From Balanoglossus misakiensis (Eukaryota > Animalia > Hemichordata): 64,000 bases of DNA. Below are positions 1,009 to 62,528 of the stretch, in pieces; positions within the stretch are counted from its first letter, which is position 1; the number at the start of each line of letters is the position of its first letter. A model generated the notes under the pieces. The model saw nothing but the letters and a program-made list of their open reading frames with translations, did no database searches and was not told the origin of the DNA. A program made the position numbers and the translations under genes. The stretch is from contig CM082585.2 in assembly GCA_040954595.2 (NCBI GenBank), forward strand, positions 8,567,649-8,631,648, in the 5' to 3' direction.

Positions 1009-2387
1009 ACTAGTTTATCTCCCTTTAACCCCCATTTCCTCGTAGATGGATTCAACCATCCATTGAAAACAATAGGACTACACCAAATCAAGATGCACTT
1101 TCTAAAACAACTGTCCTATATACCAAACTAATTCACCACAGTGCGGAAGATAACTCAATCACAGAGATGTTTGCATTCATCCTGCCGAATTGTACTGGTA
1201 TAATTCCAAACTACAAGACAAGTTAGAGAAGACAAAACATACATGTACCACTGATCCTGTACAACTGGCAACATGTGAATGTGCTAAAATTCCACTTTTG
1301 CAATGTATTTAATTATTATAAGTGTTTGCTAAACATTTACAATACTAAAAATATTATCAAATTCTACATTGCCAGTTGGTAGGTTTCACTTGTACAAGTT
1401 AGGGCACTGCAAACAGCACACTGTCTATGCTCTTTTACGGACAAAGGTTACAAACAAGTAAACATACAAACAAGCAAACATGAGACACACTCTCAAAGTT
1501 CACTTTTCATTTTTAAGTTGACTTCTGCATGACATTGGCAAGGCTGTTGTTCATTTCAGTACTTTTACGGAAAAAGAGATTTCAAATAAATTAAAATAGA
1601 TTCTAGTTGAATTTTCCATTCACACAACTTTGATGTTGAACTGGAAGAACACGGAAATCTGAACATCAGCCAAAAATCTGAAACGCCAAGAACTGAGAAG
1701 AAAACAAAGAAACTGACACAATGATGAAAGGTGAACTTTGACCTTGAACAGTGCAGAATGTTAAATACCAGTCATCGTTTTATCTTTACGGTTGCCTGGA
1801 GACAAAAAATTATGAGAAACAATCATATGATATGACAGAAAATAATTCTGTTATTCTGATCAGAAAAATGAATCTTAATAAAGTCCTTATTAAATTTATA
1901 TTCAGGGCAATCAACCTGCTTAATAGAAAATACGATCATATAATTTGTAAAAAATATCCAAAAATTTAGTTGCAGGGAAAATGATCAGTCCCCAATGAGC
2001 ATTACAATTACCTTCACAATGAAAAAATTGCACATATCATTGCCTGAGTAAATTCATAATCAATTTACTAATAGGATATTAGAGCATTGTGCACTTTGAA
2101 ACGGATGCAATTATACTGTCAAATGATTGTCAAATATGATGTCCAGTAAAACATACAAAATGGATTACCTAAGATAAGAATTATTTTTACCATATGAACA
2201 CACAGTGAGTACAAATATGACTGAAAAAAATGAATAACTTTGTGACAATTTTGAGATGAAATAATTCTTCTACACTTGACGTTTTCAATTGTAATTATAT
2301 AATACAAATATTAAATTTGTGTATGGATTATACAAACATAAATTCATACACAGTTGTAAAGTTATCGTGCTTGTAATTAGTACCTAC

Positions 2388-4935
2388 CTTGTATTCCTCT
2401 TAGTCCCTCCCCGCATCCATGTTGACAGCCCAGAACTTTGAAGATCCTCATCAGAGTATCCATCACTAAGTTGTGCATGGTCATTGGCTCGTTTTTCATT
2501 TCCTCCAAGCGCTGTTTCGCTCTGACCGCCTTGTCGACCGGCTTCTCTTCCTCCTTTTTCTGGTCGCCGTTTCCCTCCTCTTCCTTCTTCTCCTCTTTCT
2601 TCTCCTTCTTCGGCTCTTTCTTCTCCACCACGCTCATGTCTAGAAGGTGCTCGATGATTCCGAGGGAGACGTCGCAGATCCGCCCGCTCGGTTCCCGGGA
2701 CACGACGCTGTTGAGGGCCTTGATCAGGACGCCGTGGTTGATCTGACCGTTGGGAGAGATGTAGTGGGCGGCGCCGGGGGCTTCCGGGATGTCCTCCTCG
2801 ATCACCGTGGTGTAGTTGACCATGGTGTCGGAAGCGCTCCGGGATATGGGCTGCGGAGGGGGTGGCACGGCCAGAGTTATCATTCCGTCGATGTCCTTCC
2901 CGGGATCATCGTCGCACTCCTCCTCGCTGGAAGACTCTCGTTTCCGGGAGACCGATTCGCTCGGAGGGCTGGGCGGCTCGTCCCGCGGGACGGTGATGGT
3001 TTCCACTTCGGGGGCGAGGGTCACAAACAGCGGCTTGTGGGAGGAGGAGGAGGGCATCGCTTGGGGGCGTGGCACTTCGGCGATGTTCAAAGTGGCGGCG
3101 CTGGCCGTTAATCCGATGTTGGTGGTCGTCTCCGAGCTGCGATCGATCGCCTTCTCGAATCCCGGAGACTCTTTCAGGGTCTCCTTCGGAATCAGGAAGC
3201 GGTCGTCGACTTCCATGAGAGACGGCAAGTTCTTCAACTTCACCACGTCGATTGTAAATTTGAACGGTTCCACTTTCGGGGGAGCGAAGTTGCCGGCTCC
3301 TTCGATCAGCTTCCCCAGAGTCGAGAGAGGACTGCTGGACCGCCTGCTGCCTTGACTGTCCGGTTTCTCCTTCAAGAGTTCTTCCGTACTGGCACTCATC
3401 GATGTCGAGCTCTCCTCCGACTCTTCGTTGATCGACTGGGGAACCGCAGCTGCCGTCGCGTGGGTCAGACTCGACTGTCTCCGAACAGGTGTGCGTCTCT
3501 TCCCACTGCCTCGCCTCTCGAGACTTCCCCTCCTCTCCAGAGCACCTTTCCTCTCGAGACTCCCCTTCCGTCTCAAGCCCCCCGAAGTGTCCGAGTGGTC
3601 CGTCTTGATCTTCTTGGGAGAGTTGCTTCCCTCGTCGTGTCCGTCGCTGTGTCTCTCCTTCCCGTTGTTTCCCTGATACATTCCCGCCGTGGGCGGTGCC
3701 GACAGCTGCTTGGAAGCCGGAGTCTTGAAGAACGACACCTCGATCCGCGGAATCGGCGACGAGTTACTGCGCTGTCGGAAGCGTTCCAGCTTCAGCGCCT
3801 CCATGACGATTTGTTTCAGCCGGTTCTGGATGTAGCTGAGCGCCCAGTAGATGCCGTCTTCGGACCAGTGGGGATTGAAAAGGCATCTTAACACGGCAAC
3901 ATCAAAGAAAGTGGCGAGGTAGACGTCGCTTTTCTGCGAGATAATCTTCTGCGACTGATCGTGCTGCGGACTCATTGGAGAGGGGCTCCTTGAGTCGGGC
4001 GTTTGGCTTCCCTGAACGGACGGACTCCGACTATCGTCCACCGAGTTCCTCTGCAGCCGTCCGCACTGACAGGACTTGGTTTCGCCCGAGTTGAAACTGA
4101 CCGAGGTGTTGCAGACCTCGCAGAGGAACTCCACGGTCACAGACGGGGGATCCGACGACACCTCGCTGCTGAAGTGTTCGCAGACGTCGGACAGCGTGAC
4201 GAGGGGCGCAACCTGGTCGCTGCTCAGCTCGCTGCTGATTTCCGGCGGCTGGATCTGGCTGCTGCACGGACTGGAGGACGATCTCGACGAATACATGGAG
4301 TAGACCGACGTCGCGGCCTGCACCGTGTTCTCGATGGTAAGACTGCTGCTTTCGTTGGTAGAATGCTGTTCGTTGTGCTGGGGCTGCGTTTGTTCCACGT
4401 GCTCCCTGTCTTCCTGATTGTGCTTTCCCGATTCCTTTGGCACGTTGTTGGGAATTGGCCGGACGATGTGCAGCGTTCGGTGCTTCGGTTTGACCAGGGC
4501 GGAGAAGAACGGATTATCCGGGCACTTGAAGTCCCACAGCGCCTTCCACATGGACATGCCGTTCTCCAGCCGGAAGGTGAGGTCCGACTCGCGGACGCTG
4601 AACGCCAGCGGCGCGAACAGGTAGACAAACAGCTGGATGGTGGTGAGCGGAGCCTCGTACCAGATGTTTGCTACATCCCCGTTGTCCTCCTGGAAGCATT
4701 CCTGAGGGGCGTCCAGAAGGACCCAGTGCAGCGTGTACAGCAGCTTGGTCTCGCCCACCCCCAACTTGTCGATGTGACCCAGGTTGACGCGGTTGGACAG
4801 CAGGGCGGCACAGCAGTGCATGAGATGCGGCAGGGCTGTCTGGATGAGCTTGTAACGAGGAATGCTAGCGACAGCATCGCAAAGACTTGGTGATAGGCCG
4901 TGCAGCTTGTTTTCCACCAGGACTCTCTCAAATGT
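2388..4935 (-). CDS. unc-80: unc-80 coding exon 3 (2548 bp; TFERVLVENKLHGLSP...GCGEGLRGIQG); gene continues beyond the window start
   Basis: Acceptor tgtctcttttctag|ACA TTT GAG is in phase 0 with exon 2; donor is CAA G|gtaggt. UNC80 motifs present: ENKLHGLSPSL, ALPHLMHC, KLGVGETKLLYTLHW, TIQLFVYLFAPL, ATFFDVAVLRCLF, WSEDGIYWAL, GCQHGCGEG. The exon is GC-rich against AT-rich flanks. Confidence 0.95.
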
Positions 4936-38259: not shown

Positions 38260-38308
38260 CACGCAGCTAGCCTCGTATTGCTTTCCGAGCTTTGGGCGAA
38301 TAAACGGA
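38260..38308 (-). CDS. unc-80: unc-80 coding exon 2 ((S)PFIRPKLGKQYEASCV, 49 bp)
   Basis: Acceptor tttcctccacag| and donor GTG|gtaagt. The phase fits exon 1 (AG+T=Ser), and the peptide matches UNC80 'SAFLRPKLGKQYEASCV'. Confidence 0.95.
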
Positions 38309-38637
38309 CTGTGGAGGAAAGATAATGAAAATATTTCAGTGAGATATTTCCCCGAGAATAATTCGACTTGTACATTTCAGTCGATCAGTCAGTCAGCACA
38401 TGCGAAAATAAACAAACTGATGTTGATTTCAAGCCACGCGTACGTCCACGTTCACTTTCGGGGCTACATCGCATCGATGCGATGATGATGGAGATTGGCG
38501 GGTCGAGATGAAACATACATCCACGGATGACCATCGCTATCTTCCAAATCAGATGCCGGGCTCGTCAAAATTCCAATCGGTGTCAACAACACCACTGTTG
38601 GGGCTAAAAACTGCAGGGCTGTAATAAAACGACATAC

Positions 38638-38732
38638 CTCGTCTGCCGCCATAGGAAAGTCTGGATTGGGAGCGGGATCTGTTTGGCGGCATCTCTCGAT
38701 GTCTCGGATGTGGATTTTTTGCGCTTCACCAT
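38638..38732 (-). CDS. unc-80: unc-80 coding exon 1 (MVKRKKSTSETSRDAAKQIPLPIQTFLWRQT, 95 bp, phase-2 end)
   Basis: Manual translation from ATG at 38732 gives MVKRK...IPLPIQTFLWRQT, matching the conserved UNC80 N-terminus (MVKRKS...IPLPIQTFLWRQTS). It is followed by the donor AG|gtatgt. This frame is not in the ORF track. Confidence 0.95.
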
Positions 38733-39426
38733 CGTTCTTCGTGAGTCGGCTCACACGGCGATGTCCTCATGGCAAAATGATACGTCTCTTCGGATATTTG
38801 TCCCAAAAATGCGGCGGCGATCGGTGTGCGGCTCGGTATCACATCCACACACATATATACACACTGCAATCAGTCGAGTCCCCGCCGCGATGGGCGATCC
38901 TGTACCGGCGAGTGTGTATCACACACGTCCTAGTGTAGTACTGTATACCATACCAGCTGCCAATTCTGCGAGTTCACCTAATTAGCATAATAAAATTTAA
39001 TCTCGAGTCAGAAGCCCGCCGGCAAGAGTGAGCGATCGAGTCAGTTCGACCCACACAGGAAGACATAAACAGCTAGAACCCGCCATGCGTCGGTTTGCTA
39101 AACTTAGATCAAATATATGAGTTAAAACGTTCGTGAAAGTACGTCGTGTCGCGTGTGTCTGCGAGACCATTTATAAACGACATTCATGCAAATATCTAGC
39201 TCACATTAAGCTTATGTAAACCAGTCACGCATCTGTTTAAGTTTTTCCTTCTAATTTTAGAACTTTCACATATGCGATTGACTGTTTTTGTTTTAACTTT
39301 TAGTGCCCCTACATGTAAGTAAACATACAATTCATAAATTATACACAATGGTGAGCAAAAGATGAAAATAGGGCCTATGTTTATATTTTGTGGATCGCAT
39401 TTTTCAATTTATTTAGATGTGTAAGT

Positions 39427-43163: not shown

Positions 43164-44078
43164 TCACACTGCCCCTGCTCGGCGTGGCCGCATTTCCTGT
43201 CTAGAGCTGCTTCGGCCACTTTCGGACATATCGCGGCAGATGGGCGCGCCGACGGACACAGTTTCGACAGAGATAAAGCTCAACACTCTCGTGACGAGAT
43301 AGATCGCCAGTACGAACGGAGACGTCATCAGAGTCAGCGGCCCGATGGCGATAAAGACAAGACTCACTCTCTTGAGGAGGTAGATCGGCAGCCTGAATGA
43401 ATATGTGACCAGAGTCAGTGGCACGGCGGTGACGGCAAAGATAAAACTCAACACTCTCTTGCAGAGGTAGATAGGCAGCGCGAACGGAAACGTGATCACA
43501 TTCAGCGCAATCCTAAGTGTCGTTCTGACCAAGGCAATCGTGGCGACGACACGGCGTTTGATGTCGCTGACCAGGCGTGCGAACGTAACCAGCGTGTTTT
43601 TGAGACGAAGTACCCACTTCTCAGTAACGGTTATCACTCGACCTATCACTGGTAAACGGCGGAGGACGCGAAATAATATCTTGACCGACCACAGAAACAG
43701 AAACTTGGCAATAATTAAGTATAGTGCAGATCTAGGTTTGCCATCGATAGATTTCTCCGGTTGAGTCGATCTCTTGTCTAAGAAATCCCTCTGCTCCATC
43801 CAGAGAGGCCGAGTCCTTGGGTTACTAACTTCGTCGTAGCAGGGGGACTGCATCAGGCCTACCGCCCTCGCCGTAGAAACCATCATGTAGGGTACCGTCA
43901 TCATGCCGAACATCACGGACAGACAACCCAACTTGTAAGCAACGGCTCCGATCGGGAAATTGGTAAGCAGAAACACCAAGACTCGAAGGACAACTGTCAG
44001 AGCCGGGACGAGGTACTCCATAGCACACGCTGCGGCGGGCTTCCCAAAATCCTCGATAAATAAGTTCACGGATTCCAT
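43164..44078 (-). CDS. Uncharacterised hydrophobic/basic membrane protein with three internal ~27-29-aa repeats (about 304 aa from the first ATG)
   Basis: The frame is open for >330 codons and is GC-rich relative to its flanks. It has several hydrophobic segments and a repeat of the form TxPFxLPIYLxKRV. First ATG is at 44078; an AATAAA lies at ~42922-42927 on the minus strand. No family recognised. Confidence 0.65.
   Translation of the reverse strand: MESVNLFIEDFGKPAAACAMEYLVPALTVVLRVLVFLLTNFPIGAVAYKLGCLSVMFGMMTVPYMMVSTARAVGLMQSPCYDEVSNPRTRPLWMEQRDFLDKRSTQPEKSIDGKPRSALYLIIAKFLFLWSVKILFRVLRRLPVIGRVITVTEKWVLRLKNTLVTFARLVSDIKRRVVATIALVRTTLRIALNVITFPFALPIYLCKRVLSFIFAVTAVPLTLVTYSFRLPIYLLKRVSLVFIAIGPLTLMTSPFVLAIYLVTRVLSFISVETVSVGAPICRDMSESGRSSSRQEMRPRRAGAV
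43270..43510. repeat. Three degenerate coding tandem repeats of ~80-90 bp
   Basis: Units begin gataaa...cactctc...gtagat(c/a)g(c/g)cag at ~43271, ~43350 and ~43440. Confidence 0.85.
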
Positions 44079-46417
44079 CCTTGACGGTGCAAAGTATCGG
44101 TCGTCAACTTCAGAGCGAGGAAGCACTTCTCTCCAACCAGCGTACAGTGCGTTTCGAGTCAAGAGACAGCGAAATTTGTCTCAGCAAGCTGCATCCAACA
44201 TCAATGATGAAGGAAAGTTGCGGCAAACTATGCGTTGCTAAAACAAATGTGAGATTCCGACGCGCTGTTGCTACGGCAGGCTCTCGTTCTATCTATTCCA
44301 CGGAACAAAATGTGATCCCGTGCGCGCAGAACCATACGAGAATTAGTCGTATTTCCAGTTCTACAAGTACTCGCCATGCATGCGCTACCATTTTCAGCTT
44401 TTGCACAGCCCTTACACGACCGATGACTCTTGAAAAAAATTACTACGGTCATTAGGCCTATGTTATTTTGTCTTTTAACTGTCTGTGCTTATAGAATTTG
44501 CCTTCAGACATATAACGATCGGTATTTTATTTTTTTTATGGATGCCGAATTTACAAGATGGTGGCGACTTACACGCTGACTGACGTTGATTATTCACTGT
44601 ACAGCACGACTTCTGGGCTTGAGAATTTGCAAAATTAAAGCGCGGATCACGATTTATACAGTCGTGCGGACACGGTACGCGAACAGAAGTAGCTTGAGAC
44701 ATGATTTTCTCTCGTTATCCGTGATAAAGGCCGAGGAAAACTAAGGTGTGTTTTCTCGATAACTGGGTGGTTCGGTAAGAAATTCTGTTTTAGTATTTAT
44801 TTTTATTTCCCCAGTGCGCGTCTCGAAGGCAGGCAAGGGACCATACCTAGAGTTTTGAGCAGGAATATGCATGGCGTCATTGTCATACATGTACATGTCT
44901 ATCTCCTGGATTTTGCCTGATTTTTCGAGTTTCTTTCGTTTTCGTTCTGATTCTCGTGTCACCTTGCCCATATGGATATATTACATAACAGTTTAAACCA
45001 CGGGGACATATTCACTGAGTATACATCATTTACATGTACATGTACATGTATAGACATCTGGCAAGAACGGTCACCGCATGAACTGACGCATGGCGCCTTG
45101 GCGGCTCTCTCAGCAGTGGGAGGGAATAGTCTGTACCAAAAGTGAGAACGATGCGTACATCATACAGCATGCATTCGCGCTGTGATCAAAACTTTTCCCG
45201 TTAATTATACCTAACATACCATCACTGGCTATGACAAAACTCACCTTTTAATACTCGTTGCTGAAACTTTCTTGATGTCACGTCGGTAACACACAGCGCT
45301 GGCTTCGTGTTCCTCAGAAATGCTTCTGTGTCAGTACAAAGCCTGGGCCTACTACGCATATGCATATATAATAAGCAAGTCGTCTGGGATTCGGGTGGCA
45401 ATCGGATGAGTTTGTCTTTCGCTAATCTCGACGACTGACACGGCTCAACGGAGCGAAATCACTCGTATCGCTGACGGTGCTAGGGGTAATATGTGCTGTA
45501 TATAGGGAGATTCGCCGTCCGCGGAGTGTGCCGTTTGAGTGAACCACACACAGGCAGCGGGACGAAACGCGATAGCACAGGACATCACTCCCGGGGTCAT
45601 AATCCCCTAATGCTCATAATTCTATCAGTGAGTTCCGACAACTCGTAAATTTCAGTTAATAAGATGTCAGGACCGTGGACACAAATTGAGGTTATCGCTG
45701 CTCGATGCATATACATGTAATTAGATGACCGACTTTATACTGAAAACGTGTATAATGCGAAGAAAAAAGAAGCGAGCATATTTATCAATAACTTAAACAT
45801 TTATTGCCCCGAAGCCTCAATCCAGTTAGTGAGTTGTCTATACATATTATTGTCTAATAATTATCTCTCCGCTTCATGATTTCAGTAATTATGGAACTAA
45901 AATTACGCACTGGGCGTCTGTTTAGTAAATCTTCATATACAATTCTATAAATCAATGCTAAGTGAAAATAGTATACAAAATGATAAACTGGACCTTCTAT
46001 AATTACCCACCAACACCACATTAAAGATTATTTAGGAAGCCCTTATATAACAATGACTTATTTCTGGTGTGCAACGACGAGGTCGCACTTTAAATATCAG
46101 GGTATAAATTTGAATTTGCATTCCACGTTGATAGGTGGGCAACAGGTGAAATTGCGAACAGCGCCATAACTTACATTAGTAGAAAGTTGCACTTTATATA
46201 GAGGCAGTGACAGAAATATTGAATATCCTGTAAAATATAAAAAAGTAGCGCAACTGGGATTTATTGAATAATAATCTCAGGCTTCTGAGGACATTTGTCC
46301 AGGTGGATAATTTCCCTTTGATATCGTACATTTGATGTACATAATTTGGTTATCTGATGCAGAAATTATGACAGAGTAACCACGTACAGTGCTACACTGA
46401 GTGATTATTTTGAAGAA

Positions 46418-48253
46418 TTACAATTCAAAAGGCTCAAACTTCGCCAGAGCGCCACTCTGCGCTTCAATCCACTGCACCGCTTGGCCAAGATACGTGACCG
46501 AGAAGGCGCCCTCAACGTACGTCTGTGCGTTGTAAACGTACACACTCGTACCGGGTCTGATCAGTTGGGAAGCCCAGTATATTGCTTTCATGCTGCCAGA
46601 TTTCCCGGGGAAAGTTCCCGCCATAGCCGGCCCCATTGTGATGACGATGTCCCAAACGGTTCCTTTCAGGTCGTCTGGAAAATTTTCCGCCAGAGCAGTT
46701 TTCTCGTTCAGAAAGGATTTCCACTTCGCCTCGTCCGTGAGGTAGTCGGCAAAAATGACCGACGTTCCAGGCATAGCCTGTATCTGAACGGCGGGAGAAT
46801 TTTGTTGCAAGACAAATGTCGTCTGCCCGTTGGCATTCGCCCTCTGCCACAGCACAACGTCTTCAGCCGTGCCAAATACCAGCAGTCTCGTACCGGCGGG
46901 CCGTAAGAGAATGTCGTCCAGGATAGCGGCCGTCTGTCTGAGCGTAAATAACATGTCTCGGTGGTAAAATCTTTGCAAAATGGCATATTTCTCGTCTTCC
47001 ATCATTGTTTCATCTAAAATTACGCTAAGAATCTCCAGTACATCTTCAGGTGGGACTGCGGTTACGTTCTCGCTTGTTTGTGACTCCTTTGAATAAATCA
47101 CCCAGTGGTTCAAACCGAAAGCTTTCGATAAACCGGAGTAGCACTTGGTGTGAAAATTCCTACAATCAAATTCAGGGGGGACTATTTCAACTATGTGGGT
47201 CCCAGGTGGGCAAAAGACAGCATTGGCCAATGCGGGACTGTGTGGGCCGATCACAATGAACGCCTGTGAAAATAATTCCTTGTTTTTCTGCCAAGTGTTG
47301 CCTGACGTCTCCAGCGTGGTCAAAGTGTAGGATTCAGGTAAAGCTGCACGAATAGCACCGAGTACTTCATTTTCGTTGAGTATGGTTTCCCGCGCCCCGT
47401 CCGGTTCTTGCAGGTACAATAGTACATCCGGGTTCGCGGGGGGTCCTCCACCCGGCAGGTTACTGAGAGAATCCGGTGGGATGAACCCTTGGTTGTAGGG
47501 TATGTAGCTCGGATGAAAGCTCGGGTGGTACACACTTTTCGCTTTGAAAATTACGCCCGAGTCAGATTTGATAATTTGCCAGGTGTCCAGGGGACAGAAG
47601 TGCATAAGTAATTCCGAGGCAATCCGCGATTGGACCAGAACCCGTAATGAGGCAGTCGTTTGCATAAAGTTACATGTAAAGTTCAGGACGGGGAGGACGC
47701 CAAAAGCTACGTCTTCAAATGTGTCTTGTTTAATGTCGGCGAGCGACAAAATGGCGGGGAAGTTTAAAATCCCGCCAGTCTTTACTGGAAATCCCGAGGG
47801 TTTGTCGACAGCTAGTAACTGAACCGCTTTATTGTCATATATTGAGCCATTTCTGACGATGTAGCCGTCGACGATTCTCCTGATGACACCCTTAGAGGGC
47901 ACTGTCCACGTGTACCCGAAGGATTGCAAAATGTTCTCCTGGAAAACGACACTTTTGACTTCTTCAGCCGGCGGCATTCCCGGTAATACATGAATGACAT
48001 CTTCCTTCGCTACGTCGCTGCCTTCGTTTGGTCTGTAATCCTCCAACTTCCTCGCCTTCAGAAACTGCTGACCCAGACCGCGGCCATCTTTCCCGTTCGC
48101 ATCCTCGCCGAAAGGTGGCGCCGTGTGCACGAACGACGGACTGTCCAACAACACCATGTTGCTCATGAACACCAACGCGGCCACTGTCGTCAAGACGACC
48201 GTGCACCTGCACACGCGCACCATTCTCATTCTTCGCAAGAGGTACACCATCAT
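46418..48253 (-). CDS. Type II membrane protein: GT61/DUF563 glycosyltransferase-like domain fused to a DUF579-like (GXM/IRX15 polysaccharide methyltransferase) domain; single coding exon
   Basis: A 611-aa ORF from ATG 48253, with a basic N-tail, a transmembrane anchor (TVVLTTVAALVFMSNMVLL) and a stem. GT61 motifs: R..ILNENEV and F.QA.IVIGPH...LANAVFCPPG.HIVEIVP. DUF579-like motifs: LLVFG...D..LW...N..G.T.F, P......WD+++..GP, G.M.AIY.A, T.V+V++....VE..FS..+L. Confidence 0.85.
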   Translation of the reverse strand: MMVYLLRRMRMVRVCRCTVVLTTVAALVFMSNMVLLDSPSFVHTAPPFGEDANGKDGRGLGQQFLKARKLEDYRPNEGSDVAKEDVIHVLPGMPPAEEVKSVVFQENILQSFGYTWTVPSKGVIRRIVDGYIVRNGSIYDNKAVQLLAVDKPSGFPVKTGGILNFPAILSLADIKQDTFEDVAFGVLPVLNFTCNFMQTTASLRVLVQSRIASELLMHFCPLDTWQIIKSDSGVIFKAKSVYHPSFHPSYIPYNQGFIPPDSLSNLPGGGPPANPDVLLYLQEPDGARETILNENEVLGAIRAALPESYTLTTLETSGNTWQKNKELFSQAFIVIGPHSPALANAVFCPPGTHIVEIVPPEFDCRNFHTKCYSGLSKAFGLNHWVIYSKESQTSENVTAVPPEDVLEILSVILDETMMEDEKYAILQRFYHRDMLFTLRQTAAILDDILLRPAGTRLLVFGTAEDVVLWQRANANGQTTFVLQQNSPAVQIQAMPGTSVIFADYLTDEAKWKSFLNEKTALAENFPDDLKGTVWDIVITMGPAMAGTFPGKSGSMKAIYWASQLIRPGTSVYVYNAQTYVEGAFSVTYLGQAVQWIEAQSGALAKFEPFEL

Positions 48254-51200
48254 CCACCCCGGGTGCCTTGACACTGTTTCAAACCGAGCGCGAAAAACAG
48301 GGTCTGTCCATCGTCACCGTGGAAACGGTCACACCGCAGATGCGGGGAAAGGAAGACGCGGCCGCATCAACAGATTCCGCTTCGGTCAACAAATGATGAA
48401 TCGTTGAGTTTCCTGCAGGGATGATAAAACAAAATTGGATTGATATCATGACGGAGAAATTGCAATTTTTGTATTCAGTCGCTCATGTCAACTTCAGTAA
48501 TAAAGACAAGCACAACTTCCGCGATTGCCTTTGTATAATGAGAAGTCAATACGGCGCCTAACGCTACATCTGATTTTAATCAGATTGATATATGGTGTAT
48601 TATAACAGGAAATATCTCTGCAGGGTGACCCCAGCTTCATAGGTTTATGGAAATAAAAACACATTAACAGCATTTGAAATAGACGTCAATTAATTTAATA
48701 CACTTGAAATCCAACACCGTTATCCTTTTAACAATGTTTGACATCCGATAGTTATTCCATCGCATGTTCGTGTTGAAGTCGTCAAAGTTAATCCTATATC
48801 ATGAGAGTGCAAAGTCCGCAAAATTATGTCATCATACCCAAACATATTTTGCTAATTGTGTACACGACCGCTACAAATCGGGAAAGAAGGAAGAACTATA
48901 CGCGATAAATCGAACGTCAAACTGAAATGCAGGACTCAAACAGGGAGATTGCTTCAAAAAATTCTGGTCTTCGTAAGAAGAAAACCCGAAGTCGCGAACG
49001 GAATGTTTCCGATCGAAATACGGTCACGTCGCCGGGCAGACGACAGTCCTTCAACGCGAGGCCAATGCAACATTGTATAGATCGTGATTGATTACTCTGT
49101 TGACAGAAAACGTACCTGGCATCCAGATATCCTGCGTTGGGCAACGAGATTGAAGGTCGCCCACGCAGACTAGGACAAAATTTATGTTTATAGCACCCTG
49201 AGACAGGTACCCCACGCCTTGCATTTAATTCAAAGTTGTCCCGAAAGCATATAAGCCCATAGTCTCGGATGTAGATAAAAAATGCACCCGCCGAAGATAA
49301 GCGACCGACGTAGACTTTATCCGTCAGGTGGATGAAAATTTATGGGCTCTGCTTGAAAAAATCTCATTTCCGGAAAACTTTATATTCCGGTGAACACAAT
49401 ATACAACATGGCAATGTACTTGCCCTGAATTCAATATTTACTGTGGCATGAAGGTAGCGAGTCAAAGCTAACATCTGCATTCGATTTTCTATAAATTGCA
49501 CGGACTAGGCTAATTGTCACCTTCCATTTTAAAAAGTGATTATCATTAATTTTCGAAATGCATATATCAAAATTTCGTCTCCATGTATTCGAACCAGCGT
49601 CGCGCTTGCAACTAAAAAAAGTAGAACGTTTCATTGTTCCCAGCCCCGAAGTCAACCTTTTCCGACAACACTGCTCTTTGTGTGGACTTTACGCATAGAA
49701 TGCACACAGACGTACTTATGCATACATCTCCCATTATGGTCTACAACCAGTTGAACTGAATTCATTTATCAGTAACATCTGCCAGGTCACGTTTGGAGCA
49801 GACGACATGCACCAGAGCCTAGTAAAAATATAAAATGGATCCCCGCGTGTTCACTCACGCTTACACATACAAATATCAACTGCATTACTTCAAACTATAA
49901 ACTGCAATGTACTTACAACTGTCGGTATTTCACTTCGCGGTTACCAAGAATACCTGGATGCTTAAACCCGACGTTATATTGAACACTTGACTGTGGCGAT
50001 GCTAAATATTCATTTCCAAGGTCACTTTAACAAACAACGACCAAAAACACGCACCTGCTGTCGACTGGGACATTGGAAAACGAACCTTCAATATTAAAGG
50101 TGTTTTGTAAACTTGAAAACTCCCCAACATTCATGGTTTATCTGATATAAACAGAGGATTACGGCATTATATATTACGGTCTTATCAGATAGAAATGCTA
50201 TTTGTTTAGGCTAATACCCGTATCATACCAGTACCCTATATAAAGCAGATCGCGATTAGAATGTGCCGGAAACGGAAATAATATTATGAAGTGCTTCAGA
50301 AACAATGAGCGATGAGTCCCAGACATAAAATTTGTCGAAGTGAAACAAACAAACAAACAAACAAAAAAATAAACAAACGAATAAACATGATTTTATGGTA
50401 CGTTTGCATTCGAGTCAAGGTTGCATCGAACAATGGAATAGATTATTATATTTCCCACTAGACTGACCTCTGGTTTCGTTTCTCATATTTTCGTCACTTT
50501 CCATCGGTCTATTCTTTTGTTGTATCAACACTCTGAAACTCGATCAACCCGACACCAAACCCAACAAATTACCTGTTGATCCTTCTGGTTCCCGTTGAGC
50601 ACCAGACGTTTCTATATACTGCCCCAACGATGGGACAATATGGCAGTAAATACACATAGGCCTATATGCGCAACAATGGCGCGATAACCTGAAGATAACC
50701 CGCCAGATAACTACTCACTCATGCTACATATTCCGAAGTCGACCAGAAGTGACCTAAATCATTTGGTTCGCTATCACAAGACGTGCGGTCATATCAGAGT
50801 AATTCAATCAATCGCCCTATGGTTGGGGACACGACCTCGTAGTACGTTCACTTACAAGCTGTACATTCTGTGATAATCCGCCCTTAATTGGCCCAGTCCC
50901 GCTGCGCCTGAAGTCGCGAACATGTCTTTGTGTTCGGGTCTATATGATTGTGTGGAGCCGTCCAGATCAGGTCATCAAGTCACCCGGTGAATCTTGGCAT
51001 GCAACGGCTACCTCAATGCAAATGTGGTTTTCGAACTCTTAGCGCGGTTTCTGTTGCAAGGCACTGGGCCGTCTGGTCCGCGTCTTTATTACAGCGCCCC
51101 CGTTCCCGTTGACTGGTTCCCAATCCCGAGACTATAATGGGCGGACTTACCTCCGTGACTACGTATACGGGAGAAAAAAAATCTACGACCAAATCTTTGA

Positions 51201-58913: not shown

Positions 58914-59990
58914 TTACACTCTTTGGCACCTGAGAAGTTTCTTGATTGTTCTTCGGAGAGGCTTGTCCCTGAAGGCGTACACGACGGGGTTGATGGCAGA
59001 ATTTAACATGCCCATAGAGAAGGCAATGTGGGTTAGTGTATAGTAATTAAAACCGCGGATTGTATATTGCAGCACTAAAAGTAAGGCGAACGGTGACCAA
59101 CAAAGAGCAAATACCCCTAGAATCATCGACAGTGTCTTTGTCGTTGTGTTCTCCTTCTTGAAGATCCTCACGCGGCTCTGCTGGGCTTGAGACGGCTGCT
59201 CTACGGCAACACCGGGCGACACGGTCGACAAGCCAGGGCGGGCTGCGTGGTGGCTGGTCCCCGGCGCCGCGACGGTCACCAATTCGGTCGGCGGCGTCGT
59301 GTTAAGGCTGGCGTGAAGCGCGTTGATGTTCCGCCGCTGTTTGATGGCAATGTGCGCCAGTAGCCCGTACAGCACGCACATGACGACCAGCGGCAAGAAG
59401 AACACGCCGAGGCAGAAGAACATGAGGTACCCGCCGCTCATCGCAAACGAAGGCAGGCAGACGACGTGGGGCGGCAGCTGGCTGCTCCAGCCAACCAGCG
59501 GCAGGGAGGCGATGATCGCACCGCTCAACCAGACACCGGCGATGCAACAGGTGCACCGGAAATTGGTCATGTTCATGTTGTACTTGAACGGTATCGTGAT
59601 CGACATATATCGATCCACGGCTATGAGGACCAAGTGGAAAATACTTGTGGACCACAGGAAAAACAAAAAGCACAGAGTGTACACACAGTAGTGCGGATTT
59701 CGCTCAAGTGTCTCAGGCCATCCCATGTACATGGCGCCCACGCCAAAGTAGAAGCCGGACACAGTGTCAATACTGGCCAAACTTGCGATGTACGCGTACC
59801 GCCGTGCTCGCAGTTCGCCATTCAAGAAAATGGACAGTATCACCATGAAATTGCCGAAAACTGTCAGTAAACCAAAGAAAGACATGCGTACAACTGCCCA
59901 CATGTCTCTTTCGTAATATATCGAGTCGTTCAGAAATAATGTGAAATTGGCGGTGGTGTTGTATGCCGACGATAAATTCTCCCTGTTCAT
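58914..59990 (-). CDS. Rhodopsin-class (class A) GPCR, adenosine-receptor/MECA-like orphan; single coding exon
   Basis: Seven hydrophobic segments with GN (TM1), LASID (TM2), DRY (TM3), W..LPLVGW (TM4), FFLP (TM5), FALCWSP (TM6) and NSAINPVVY (TM7). N-terminal N-glycosylation sequons are present. Confidence 0.93.
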   Translation of the reverse strand: MNRENLSSAYNTTANFTLFLNDSIYYERDMWAVVRMSFFGLLTVFGNFMVILSIFLNGELRARRYAYIASLASIDTVSGFYFGVGAMYMGWPETLERNPHYCVYTLCFLFFLWSTSIFHLVLIAVDRYMSITIPFKYNMNMTNFRCTCCIAGVWLSGAIIASLPLVGWSSQLPPHVVCLPSFAMSGGYLMFFCLGVFFLPLVVMCVLYGLLAHIAIKQRRNINALHASLNTTPPTELVTVAAPGTSHHAARPGLSTVSPGVAVEQPSQAQQSRVRIFKKENTTTKTLSMILGVFALCWSPFALLLVLQYTIRGFNYYTLTHIAFSMGMLNSAINPVVYAFRDKPLRRTIKKLLRCQRV

Positions 59991-61409: not shown

Positions 61410-62528
61410 TCATACTCTCTGGCATTTGAGAATCTTCTTGAATGTTTTTCTGAGTGGGATGTCTCTCAGGGCGTACAGGACAGGGTTGATGGCCGAGTTG
61501 GCCATGCCGAGGGAGAACGCAACGTTGTTGAGGGTGTGGTTGTAGAAGCCCGGAACGGTGTACTCCGCGATCAGCATGAAGGAGAAGGGCAACCAGCAGA
61601 GAGCGAAAACGCCCAGGATCATGGACAGCGTCTTGGTCGTTCGCATTTCTCTCTTGAACGTCTTCAAGCGGCTCTGCTGGGTCGGCTGAGATGGCTGTCC
61701 GGCACCGGAGGGTTGGACGGCCGATGGTTCATCAGCACGTCGGGCGTATTCGGGCTGCAGTCCGGGTCCGCTGCTGACGGTCTGCCCTTCGGTGCTGGGT
61801 CCGGCCGCGTTCACGCTGGCGTGAAGGGCGTCGATTTTCCGCCGCTGCTGGAGCGCGATGCGCGCGAGTCGGCCGTACAGCACGCACATGGCGATCAGGG
61901 GGAGGAAGAACACCCCGAAGCAGACGAACATGAGGTACTCTCCGCTCAGCACGAATGAGGGTATGCAGGCGATGTACGGCGGCAGGGGCGGTCTCCACCC
62001 CAGCAGCGGCAGGGCGGCCACGGTGGCCCCGCACAGCCAGGCGCCGGCGACGAAGCAGGAACACCGGCACTTGGTCATGGTCATCTCGTAGGTGAACGGG
62101 TTCGTGATTGTCAGGTAGCGGTCGATGGCTATGAGGACCATGTGGAATATACTGGTGGACCAGAGCAGGTACAGACAGCAAAAGATCGTGACGCAGAATT
62201 GGGGGTTGCTGTCGAGGATCTCCGGGGCGCTGTTGTGCATGGCCCCGACCGCGATGTAGACACCACTCAGAGCATCCACCGTGGCCAAACTCGCTATGTA
62301 GGCGTACCTCGGCGCCCGGAGCTCGTCGTTCAAGACGACGGACAACACCACCAGCAGGTTGCCGAACAGAGTCACGACACCCAGGACGACGATGCGCACA
62401 ACGGTGCCGATATCGATGACGGAGCCAATGTAGGCGTCATCGTCGGTGTAAGCGTCGTTGAACGACAAGTCTGTGTCGTTGCAGTACTTCGAGTGGTTGC
62501 ACGGCGAAAGGGTGCTGGCCGCAGACAT
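61410..62528 (-). CDS. Rhodopsin-class GPCR, tandem paralog of 58914-59990; single coding exon
   Basis: Motifs GN, LATVD, DRY, LPLLGW, FALCWLP and NSAINPVLY. It shares long stretches with its neighbour (RYAYIASLA, WSTSIFH, TTKTLSMILGVFALCW, C-terminal CQRV). First ATG is at 62528. Confidence 0.93.
   Translation of the reverse strand: MSAASTLSPCNHSKYCNDTDLSFNDAYTDDDAYIGSVIDIGTVVRIVVLGVVTLFGNLLVVLSVVLNDELRAPRYAYIASLATVDALSGVYIAVGAMHNSAPEILDSNPQFCVTIFCCLYLLWSTSIFHMVLIAIDRYLTITNPFTYEMTMTKCRCSCFVAGAWLCGATVAALPLLGWRPPLPPYIACIPSFVLSGEYLMFVCFGVFFLPLIAMCVLYGRLARIALQQRRKIDALHASVNAAGPSTEGQTVSSGPGLQPEYARRADEPSAVQPSGAGQPSQPTQQSRLKTFKREMRTTKTLSMILGVFALCWLPFSFMLIAEYTVPGFYNHTLNNVAFSLGMANSAINPVLYALRDIPLRKTFKKILKCQRV

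Follow-up and report, generated by a model that had tools for sequence, protein, structure and literature searches.

The acorn worm Balanoglossus misakiensis encodes a protein, here called P0001, in which a GT61-like glycosyltransferase domain is fused to a DUF579 domain, and this fusion is real. DUF579 is described as a family of plant wall-polysaccharide methyltransferases; the present analysis places it in animal genomes as well, there as a fusion with GT61. By profile, P0001 is a member of both PF21729 and PF04577, but its catalytic motifs, as read from the sequence, place it outside the active enzymes of either family. The explanation that we prefer, with somewhat better than even confidence, is that P0001 is a conserved, folded and doubly dead enzyme whose present role may be that of a scaffold or glycan-binding subunit in the lumen of the ER/Golgi.

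Gene structure and genomic context

The DNA analyzed, referred to as the window, is a stretch of 64,000 nt from assembly GCA_040954595.2 (CM082585.2, positions 8,567,649–8,631,648). In window coordinates, the features of the P0001 gene are as follows:

46418..48253, minus strand: single-exon coding sequence of P0001 (611 aa), collinear with a 591-aa Saccoglossus protein (E 1e-143)
48146..48202, minus strand: predicted type II signal-anchor, aa 18–36, after a short basic tail (hydropathy peak 2.11; orthologue segment 2.84)
47969..48145, minus strand: stem, about aa 37–95, with an inferred boundary; conservation is lowest here (25 identities in 79 aligned positions over aa 1–95)
46994..47968, minus strand: GT61-like domain, about aa 96–420, with altered catalytic motifs (PF04577 above cut-off, hhalign probability 99.5, column counts)
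46421..46990, minus strand: DUF579 / IRX15-GXM domain, aa 422–611, with a predicted class I methyltransferase fold (PF21729, model pLDDT 88.5, fold matches, conservation)
48413..48437, minus strand: pyrimidine tract that closes with CAG and lies 159 nt ahead of the ATG; putative acceptor site for splicing of an intron in the 5'-UTR (sequence)
46260..46265, minus strand: AATAAA about 150 nt past the stop codon; putative polyadenylation signal (one of two such hexamers in the 1020 nt scanned)

The open reading frame runs from 48253 to 46418 through 611 uninterrupted codons, and its coding part is intronless. The initial annotation let the protein end at residue 618, which is wrong; the four motifs that it quoted from P0001 are all present letter for letter. 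The pyrimidine tract with its CAG and the AATAAA hexamer suggest that the transcript is spliced in the 5'-UTR and polyadenylated.

We compared P0001 with its Saccoglossus kowalevskii orthologue (P0003; LOC100367755, XP_002730759.1), which has long been in RefSeq and is annotated only as 'uncharacterized'. The two proteins align from end to end, with an identity of 37% by BLAST (229/611, E 1e-143) and 39% by MAFFT, and the N-lobe of the GT61 domain is the best conserved region (43%, compared with 40% in the C-lobe and 38% in the C-terminal domain). P0001 has one hydrophobic segment close to its N-terminus, preceded by basic residues (best 19-aa window from aa 18, mean hydropathy 2.11), and P0003 has a matching segment. 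The cysteines C194, C220, C348, C364 and C371 of P0001, predicted to be lumenal, are common to both proteins, as is an N-glycosylation sequon at N191. Hydropathy, cysteines and sequon fit a type II topology with ER/Golgi residence, which we infer for P0001, and a cleaved signal peptide would also be possible. Judging from 38–43% identity over three globular regions and from the common cysteines and sequon, the chain appears to be under continued constraint in both animals.

The window is animal DNA, as it contains a spliced UNC80 gene and two rhodopsin-family GPCR genes. UNC80 lies on the minus strand, with its first two coding exons at ~38635–38735 and ~38260–38310, followed by an intron of ~33 kb and a large exon at 2377–4935. 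Nesting of the P0001 coding region within a UNC80 intron was ruled out, because the UNC80 start codon (near 38.7 kb) is downstream of the P0001 gene, which thus lies upstream of UNC80. The GPCR genes are tandem single-ORF genes on the minus strand (58914–59990 and 61410–62528). Public DNA contigs from three runs of one sample cover the P0001 region, differ from the window at a few percent of positions, and include single contigs that span both ends of the ORF into non-coding flanks (one at 47769–48521 and two at 46373–46523). No second copy of P0001 was found by tblastn within the 64-kb window.

An alternative is that the P0001 gene was acquired by transfer and survives as a relic without function, or that it is an assembly contaminant; its coding sequence is intronless, and the named DUF579 relatives other than P0003 are non-animal. 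We consider this very unlikely, because the two species carry intact collinear ORFs with 37–39% identity and cysteines in common, the contigs bridge the ORF into its flanks, and P0003 is annotated in RefSeq as an animal gene, on a contig of 654 kb. The claim of the initial annotation that the fusion sits in an animal genome is upheld by the gene neighbors, the bridging contigs and the Saccoglossus orthologue.

Two other elements of the window were observed. In all three runs, a short element at ~48543–48594, lying about 130 nt ahead of the putative acceptor site, had very high summed depth together with numerous loose ends; it is a dispersed repeat. A 304-aa ORF at 43164–44078 (minus strand) is hydrophobic in several stretches, carries three internal repeats, each of 27–29 codons (43265–43507), and has in-frame 6-nt indels in another individual's contigs. 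Pfam gave no match for this ORF up to E = 1; it is likely to be an uncharacterized membrane protein.

Domain assignment and predicted fold

Both domains proposed in the initial annotation stand. PF04577 (GT61) matched aa 275–355 with 41.2 bits (E 2.4e-10, cut-off 27), and comparison of the GT61 part with 66 bacterial GT61 sequences by hhalign gave a probability of 99.5 (E 9.9e-23) over 222 columns, reaching the N-lobe motif. PF21729 (IRX15/GXM) matched with 45.2 bits (E 9.9e-12; 50.4 bits for the domain alone; cut-off 27.8). The related model TIGR01627 did yield a match at E 1.2e-10, but its 41.6 bits (46.8 for the domain alone) are far below the cut-off of 149.85. In an Atlas feature search, GT61 clusters scored 0.83–0.84, which serves as a lead only, and PF21729 clusters scored 0.92.

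We modelled the C-terminal 190 residues (aa 422–611) from a 112-row alignment containing 111 homologues, and obtained a pLDDT of 88.5. All of the Foldseek and VIA matches listed were methyltransferases or methyltransferase-like proteins, and the best was the sugar O-methyltransferase SpnH (Z 13.5, rmsd 3.0, 160 aligned residues), which was tied within 1 Z with several other class I methyltransferases. According to the model, the DUF579 domain of P0001 has a class I SAM-methyltransferase fold, Rossmann-like with seven strands; because the model is driven by 111 intact homologues, it shows fold and not activity. A single-sequence model of aa 92–611, which includes the GT61 half, had a pLDDT of 33.6 and was not usable for the GT-B fold. 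With the DUF579 profile, no real match was obtained from the PDB sequences; the hits, weak ones that included short repeat matches to lectins of Photorhabdus, were judged to be due to chance.

Active-site residues of the DUF579 domain

We searched 1.84 billion representatives with the C-terminal domain of P0001 using phmmer, obtained 378 matches at E up to 0.001 and examined the best 150. From these, 149 relatives were used to define 18 columns that are at least 95% conserved. P0001 misses seven of the 18 columns and P0003 misses 10, compared with none in 120 of the 149 relatives and five in the worst relative, in a set that was recruited with P0001 as the query and should therefore favor likeness to P0001.

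The replacements in P0001, with the conservation of each family residue among the relatives, are G463A (144/146), E482L (144/147), W487P (146/148), D540M (148/149), R554S (148/149), D575N (146/147) and R578T (147/148). The same seven columns are also altered in P0003, and at six of them the replacing residue differs between the two animals, as would be expected of relaxed sites. The plant motifs FLEE, VDAP, GRM and VHDV.R correspond to FVLQ, TMGP, GSM and VYNAQT in P0001, a contrast that was already visible in the comparison given by the initial annotation. In the model, G461–G463 follow strand 1, and the E482, D540 and D575 positions end strands 2, 4 and 5, respectively; we take these to be the positions that contact SAM and the metal in class I O-methyltransferases. 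The features of an active DUF579 enzyme (GxG, an acid after strand 2, DxP, GR and HDxxR) are lacking in P0001 and are altered in P0003 as well.

No mutagenesis of DUF579 residues was found in the literature consulted, and the roles of these residues rest on conservation and fold position, by which the E482, D540, R554, D575 and R578 positions are likely to be catalytic residues of the family. The column analysis thus names, as a by-product, likely catalytic residues for a family that lacks a real sequence match in the PDB. The invariant polar residues D465, D535 and E581 are kept. A preferential loss of polar over other invariant positions was considered and dropped, as the difference was not significant (Fisher's exact test, P = 0.14 and 0.66).

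Some of the conserved residues could still allow the methyltransferase-like domain to bind SAM or SAH without turnover and to serve as a sensor or regulator, as both proteins retain L458-V-F-G461, D465 and N473, and one of the two retains W469. However, the acid that ends strand 2 (the E482 column) is Leu or Val in the animal pair, the nearest other acid being more than three residues away, and Ala stands in place of the second Gly of motif I. We accordingly attribute only a slight probability to such a sensor.

Active-site residues of the GT61 domain

The GT61 motifs have been defined as NxxHxxxD, RxxxRxxxN and HGAxxT (PMC13123520; PMC8360118; bioRxiv 2025.07.18.665579). In the accessible parts of these sources, the Asn and both Arg residues are reported to be required in EOGT and POMGNT2, the N-R-R triad is regarded as a possible hallmark of active GT61s (PMC13123520; bioRxiv 2025.07.18.665579), and His166 is proposed as the base (PMC8360118). 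We used 66 bacterial loci as a reference, whose members are without assayed activity and whose profile was seeded on 32 loci picked by the HGA motif.

Among six columns that are at least 85% conserved in the 66 references, P0001 misses five and P0003 misses four; 45 of the 66 references miss none, the worst misses four, and only one misses as many as P0003. At the NxxHxxxD columns, both animal proteins have T178, D181 and G185 (P0001 numbering), so that the His-base motif, with His in 60 of the 66 references, is absent. The first phosphate-binding Arg column (Arg in 65/66) is Glu in both proteins (E283 in P0001), and the second (Arg in 57/66) is E289 in P0001 and Ile in P0003. Each protein has one Arg that lies one column away from the RxxxR positions, and these are different ones (R288 in P0001, and an Arg facing Q282 in P0003). 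The HGA loop reads HSPALAN (H338-S-P) in P0001 and RSTAVAN in P0003, with Ser in both at the Gly column (Gly in 65/66). N293 is kept.

These replacements leave room for a GT61 half that is still active with rewired chemistry, in which Asp181 would serve as the base, the donor would be bound in another way, and the dead DUF579 half would be an acceptor-binding module. Lectin or FnIII appendages occur on other Golgi and ER transferases. The motif QDTFED..FG.LP, which places an acid (D181) at the position of the catalytic His base, is common to both proteins and lies in the N-lobe, and the first motif position is known to vary among N, F, Y and G across taxa (PMC13123520). However, the variants described in the accessible parts of the same source all keep both arginines, which are here replaced by Glu in both proteins and by Glu or Ile, and the HGA loop has become HSP in P0001 and RST in P0003. 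We therefore regard rewired sugar transfer as possible but doubtful. From the losses in both halves, it would appear that neither sugar transfer nor methyl transfer has survived in P0001.

Relatives of the fusion and its origin

P0003 was the only full-length orthologue found among the best 150 of the 378 matches, which also makes the DUF579 domain of acorn worms the sole animal example found there; on this scope, the animal range of the GT61-DUF579 fusion is a lower bound. We scanned with Pfam all 35 relatives longer than 300 aa among these 150, and 19 of them, the orthologue included, carried a glycosyltransferase-family match, so a transferase-DUF579 fusion is common among the best matches and is not new as a design. 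The partners belong to GT2, GT4, GT8, GT34, GT41 and a nucleotide-diphospho-sugar transferase family, and the GT61 pairing occurred in one of the 35, P0003 itself.

This frequency is consistent with a recurring design in which sugar transfer and methylation are coupled, and the initial annotation had proposed precisely that one chain adds a sugar and then O-methylates it. Both domains of P0001 score above their Pfam cut-offs, the closest fold match (tied as described above) is a sugar O-methyltransferase, and there are bacterial GT61 Atlas clusters with Methyltransf_24 on 54% of 52 members. If both domains were active, however, they would have to work without residues that are kept in 98–99% of relatives and that are replaced differently in the two animals, and a fold model derived from intact homologues does not speak for activity. 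The coupling is thus contradicted by the sequences, in which near-invariant residues of both DUF579 and GT61 are replaced in both animal proteins, and we judge it highly improbable.

A source look-up for 26 of the best 150 matches showed that the named ones besides P0003 are bacterial, algal or other micro-eukaryotic, and the Atlas clusters of the DUF579 domain are mostly bacterial or viral. The description 'plant-type' in the initial annotation was hence too narrow. A metagenome scan with the two-sequence alignment of P0001 and P0003 found no relative among 320 pattern matches. In an unrooted tree of 42 of the 151 rows, which has long branches, the two animal DUF579 domains joined at 100/99 and shared their side of the tree with 10 sequences, mostly micro-eukaryote-like, with a split from the rest at 96/84; in the tree of all 151 rows, likewise unrooted and with long branches, the split of the animal pair's side from the rest was at 99.

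These relationships make an origin of the fusion by horizontal transfer plausible. Hemichordate genes with marine microbial relatives are a known pattern (PMC4729200, in its accessible parts), which the GT61-DUF579 gene fits. It is also conceivable, although we think it unlikely, that the acorn-worm lineage took the fusion from a marine micro-eukaryote and rebuilt both halves, turning the DUF579 domain into one that reads methylated or uronic-acid glycans and giving the GT61 domain a new Asp-base chemistry that dispenses with the N-R-R triad.

Several relatives were observed to have intact motifs. Viral contigs contain DUF579 methyltransferases that look intact (18 loci), two Atlas clusters are mostly viral, and phage-encoded glycan O-methyltransferases are a point of interest arising from these loci. 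P0002 (2241 aa, from a eukaryote protein set), P0007 (652 aa) and P0038 (1167 aa) contain two to three tandem DUF579 or several glycosyltransferase-like domains. Two Logan sequences, P0063 (288 aa) and P0035 (248 aa), are DUF579 proteins of the stand-alone kind; both have a hydrophobic segment at the N-terminus, and their branches lie close to the two animal domains. If they are animal, they would be better candidates for glycan O-methyltransferases than P0001.

A possible non-catalytic role

The pseudoenzyme argument that we favor rests on two sequences, P0001 and P0003. The ancestor may have been an active transferase-methyltransferase fusion of microbial or micro-eukaryote type, from which both chemistries were lost while both folds were kept. 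Glycan chains or a partner glycosyltransferase might now occupy the clefts, as has been proposed for plant IRX9, and by this analogy P0001 would be a scaffold or glycan-binding subunit of a lumenal glycosylation complex. Further examples of pseudoenzymes are Cosmc, METTL14 and Trm6. If the pseudoenzyme reading is true, P0001 represents a clean case of two unrelated enzyme folds that are dead in one chain yet kept, and points to an unknown glycan complex in the secretory pathway of these mucus-feeding animals.

Glycan O-methylation has been described in snails and nematodes (PMC6272458), and the initial annotation put the protein forward as a candidate for the enzymes behind it in invertebrates. 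P0001 is a poor candidate for the snail and nematode reactions, because the sole orthologue found is from a hemichordate. P0001 probably does not solve invertebrate glycan O-methylation, and a tempting but probably false lead is thereby removed.

The statement that the fusion had no prior description in animals agrees with our literature search, mostly outside the subscription literature, which found no paper on an animal DUF579 protein, a GT61-DUF579 fusion, the locus or its accession. Two supplements of the hemichordate genome paper, in their accessible parts, contain no DUF579, DUF563, Pfam numbers or P0003 accession (PMC4729200). The GT61 pairing, the presence in animals and the double degeneration are accordingly the new elements, for which no description was found.

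Comparison with known systems

The Saccoglossus protein resembles P0001 in its whole architecture and is altered at the same active-site columns, but its replacement residues are mostly unlike those of P0001, and its C-terminal domain is the more degenerate of the two (10/18 versus 7/18 columns missed).

Plant DUF579 proteins are stand-alone methyltransferases. The plant proteins GXM1-3, AGM1/2 and IRX15/15L (PF21729) have the same domain family and predicted fold as the C-terminal domain of P0001, whereas in P0001 the domain is fused to GT61 and near-invariant residues are missing. According to the accessible parts of PMC6508755, the plant proteins are Golgi-localized, GXM and AGM methylate GlcA, and IRX15 is without shown activity.

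EOGT, POMGNT2 and plant XAT/XXT are similar to P0001 in their PF04577 match, in the collinear positions of their motifs, and in having an anchor and a lumenal domain; a phmmer comparison of P0001 with POMGNT2 chains gave weak matches (best E 0.045). In contrast to these enzymes, P0001 lacks the N-R-R triad, the catalytic His and the Gly of HGA, and its C-terminal appendage is DUF579 rather than FnIII.

The DUF579-glycosyltransferase fusions of microbes and micro-eukaryotes also join a methyltransferase domain to a transferase. However, a GT61 partner was found in P0001 and P0003 alone (one of the 35 long relatives among the best 150 of 378), and nearly all of the others keep the invariant residues.

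Finally, IRX9 is described as a glycosyltransferase-like Golgi subunit that acts structurally rather than catalytically and can do without its catalytic residues (PMC4132061, in its accessible parts). In subunits of this type an enzyme fold is kept for a structural role, as we propose for P0001, but P0001 differs from them in combining two degenerate enzyme folds, unrelated to each other, in a single chain.
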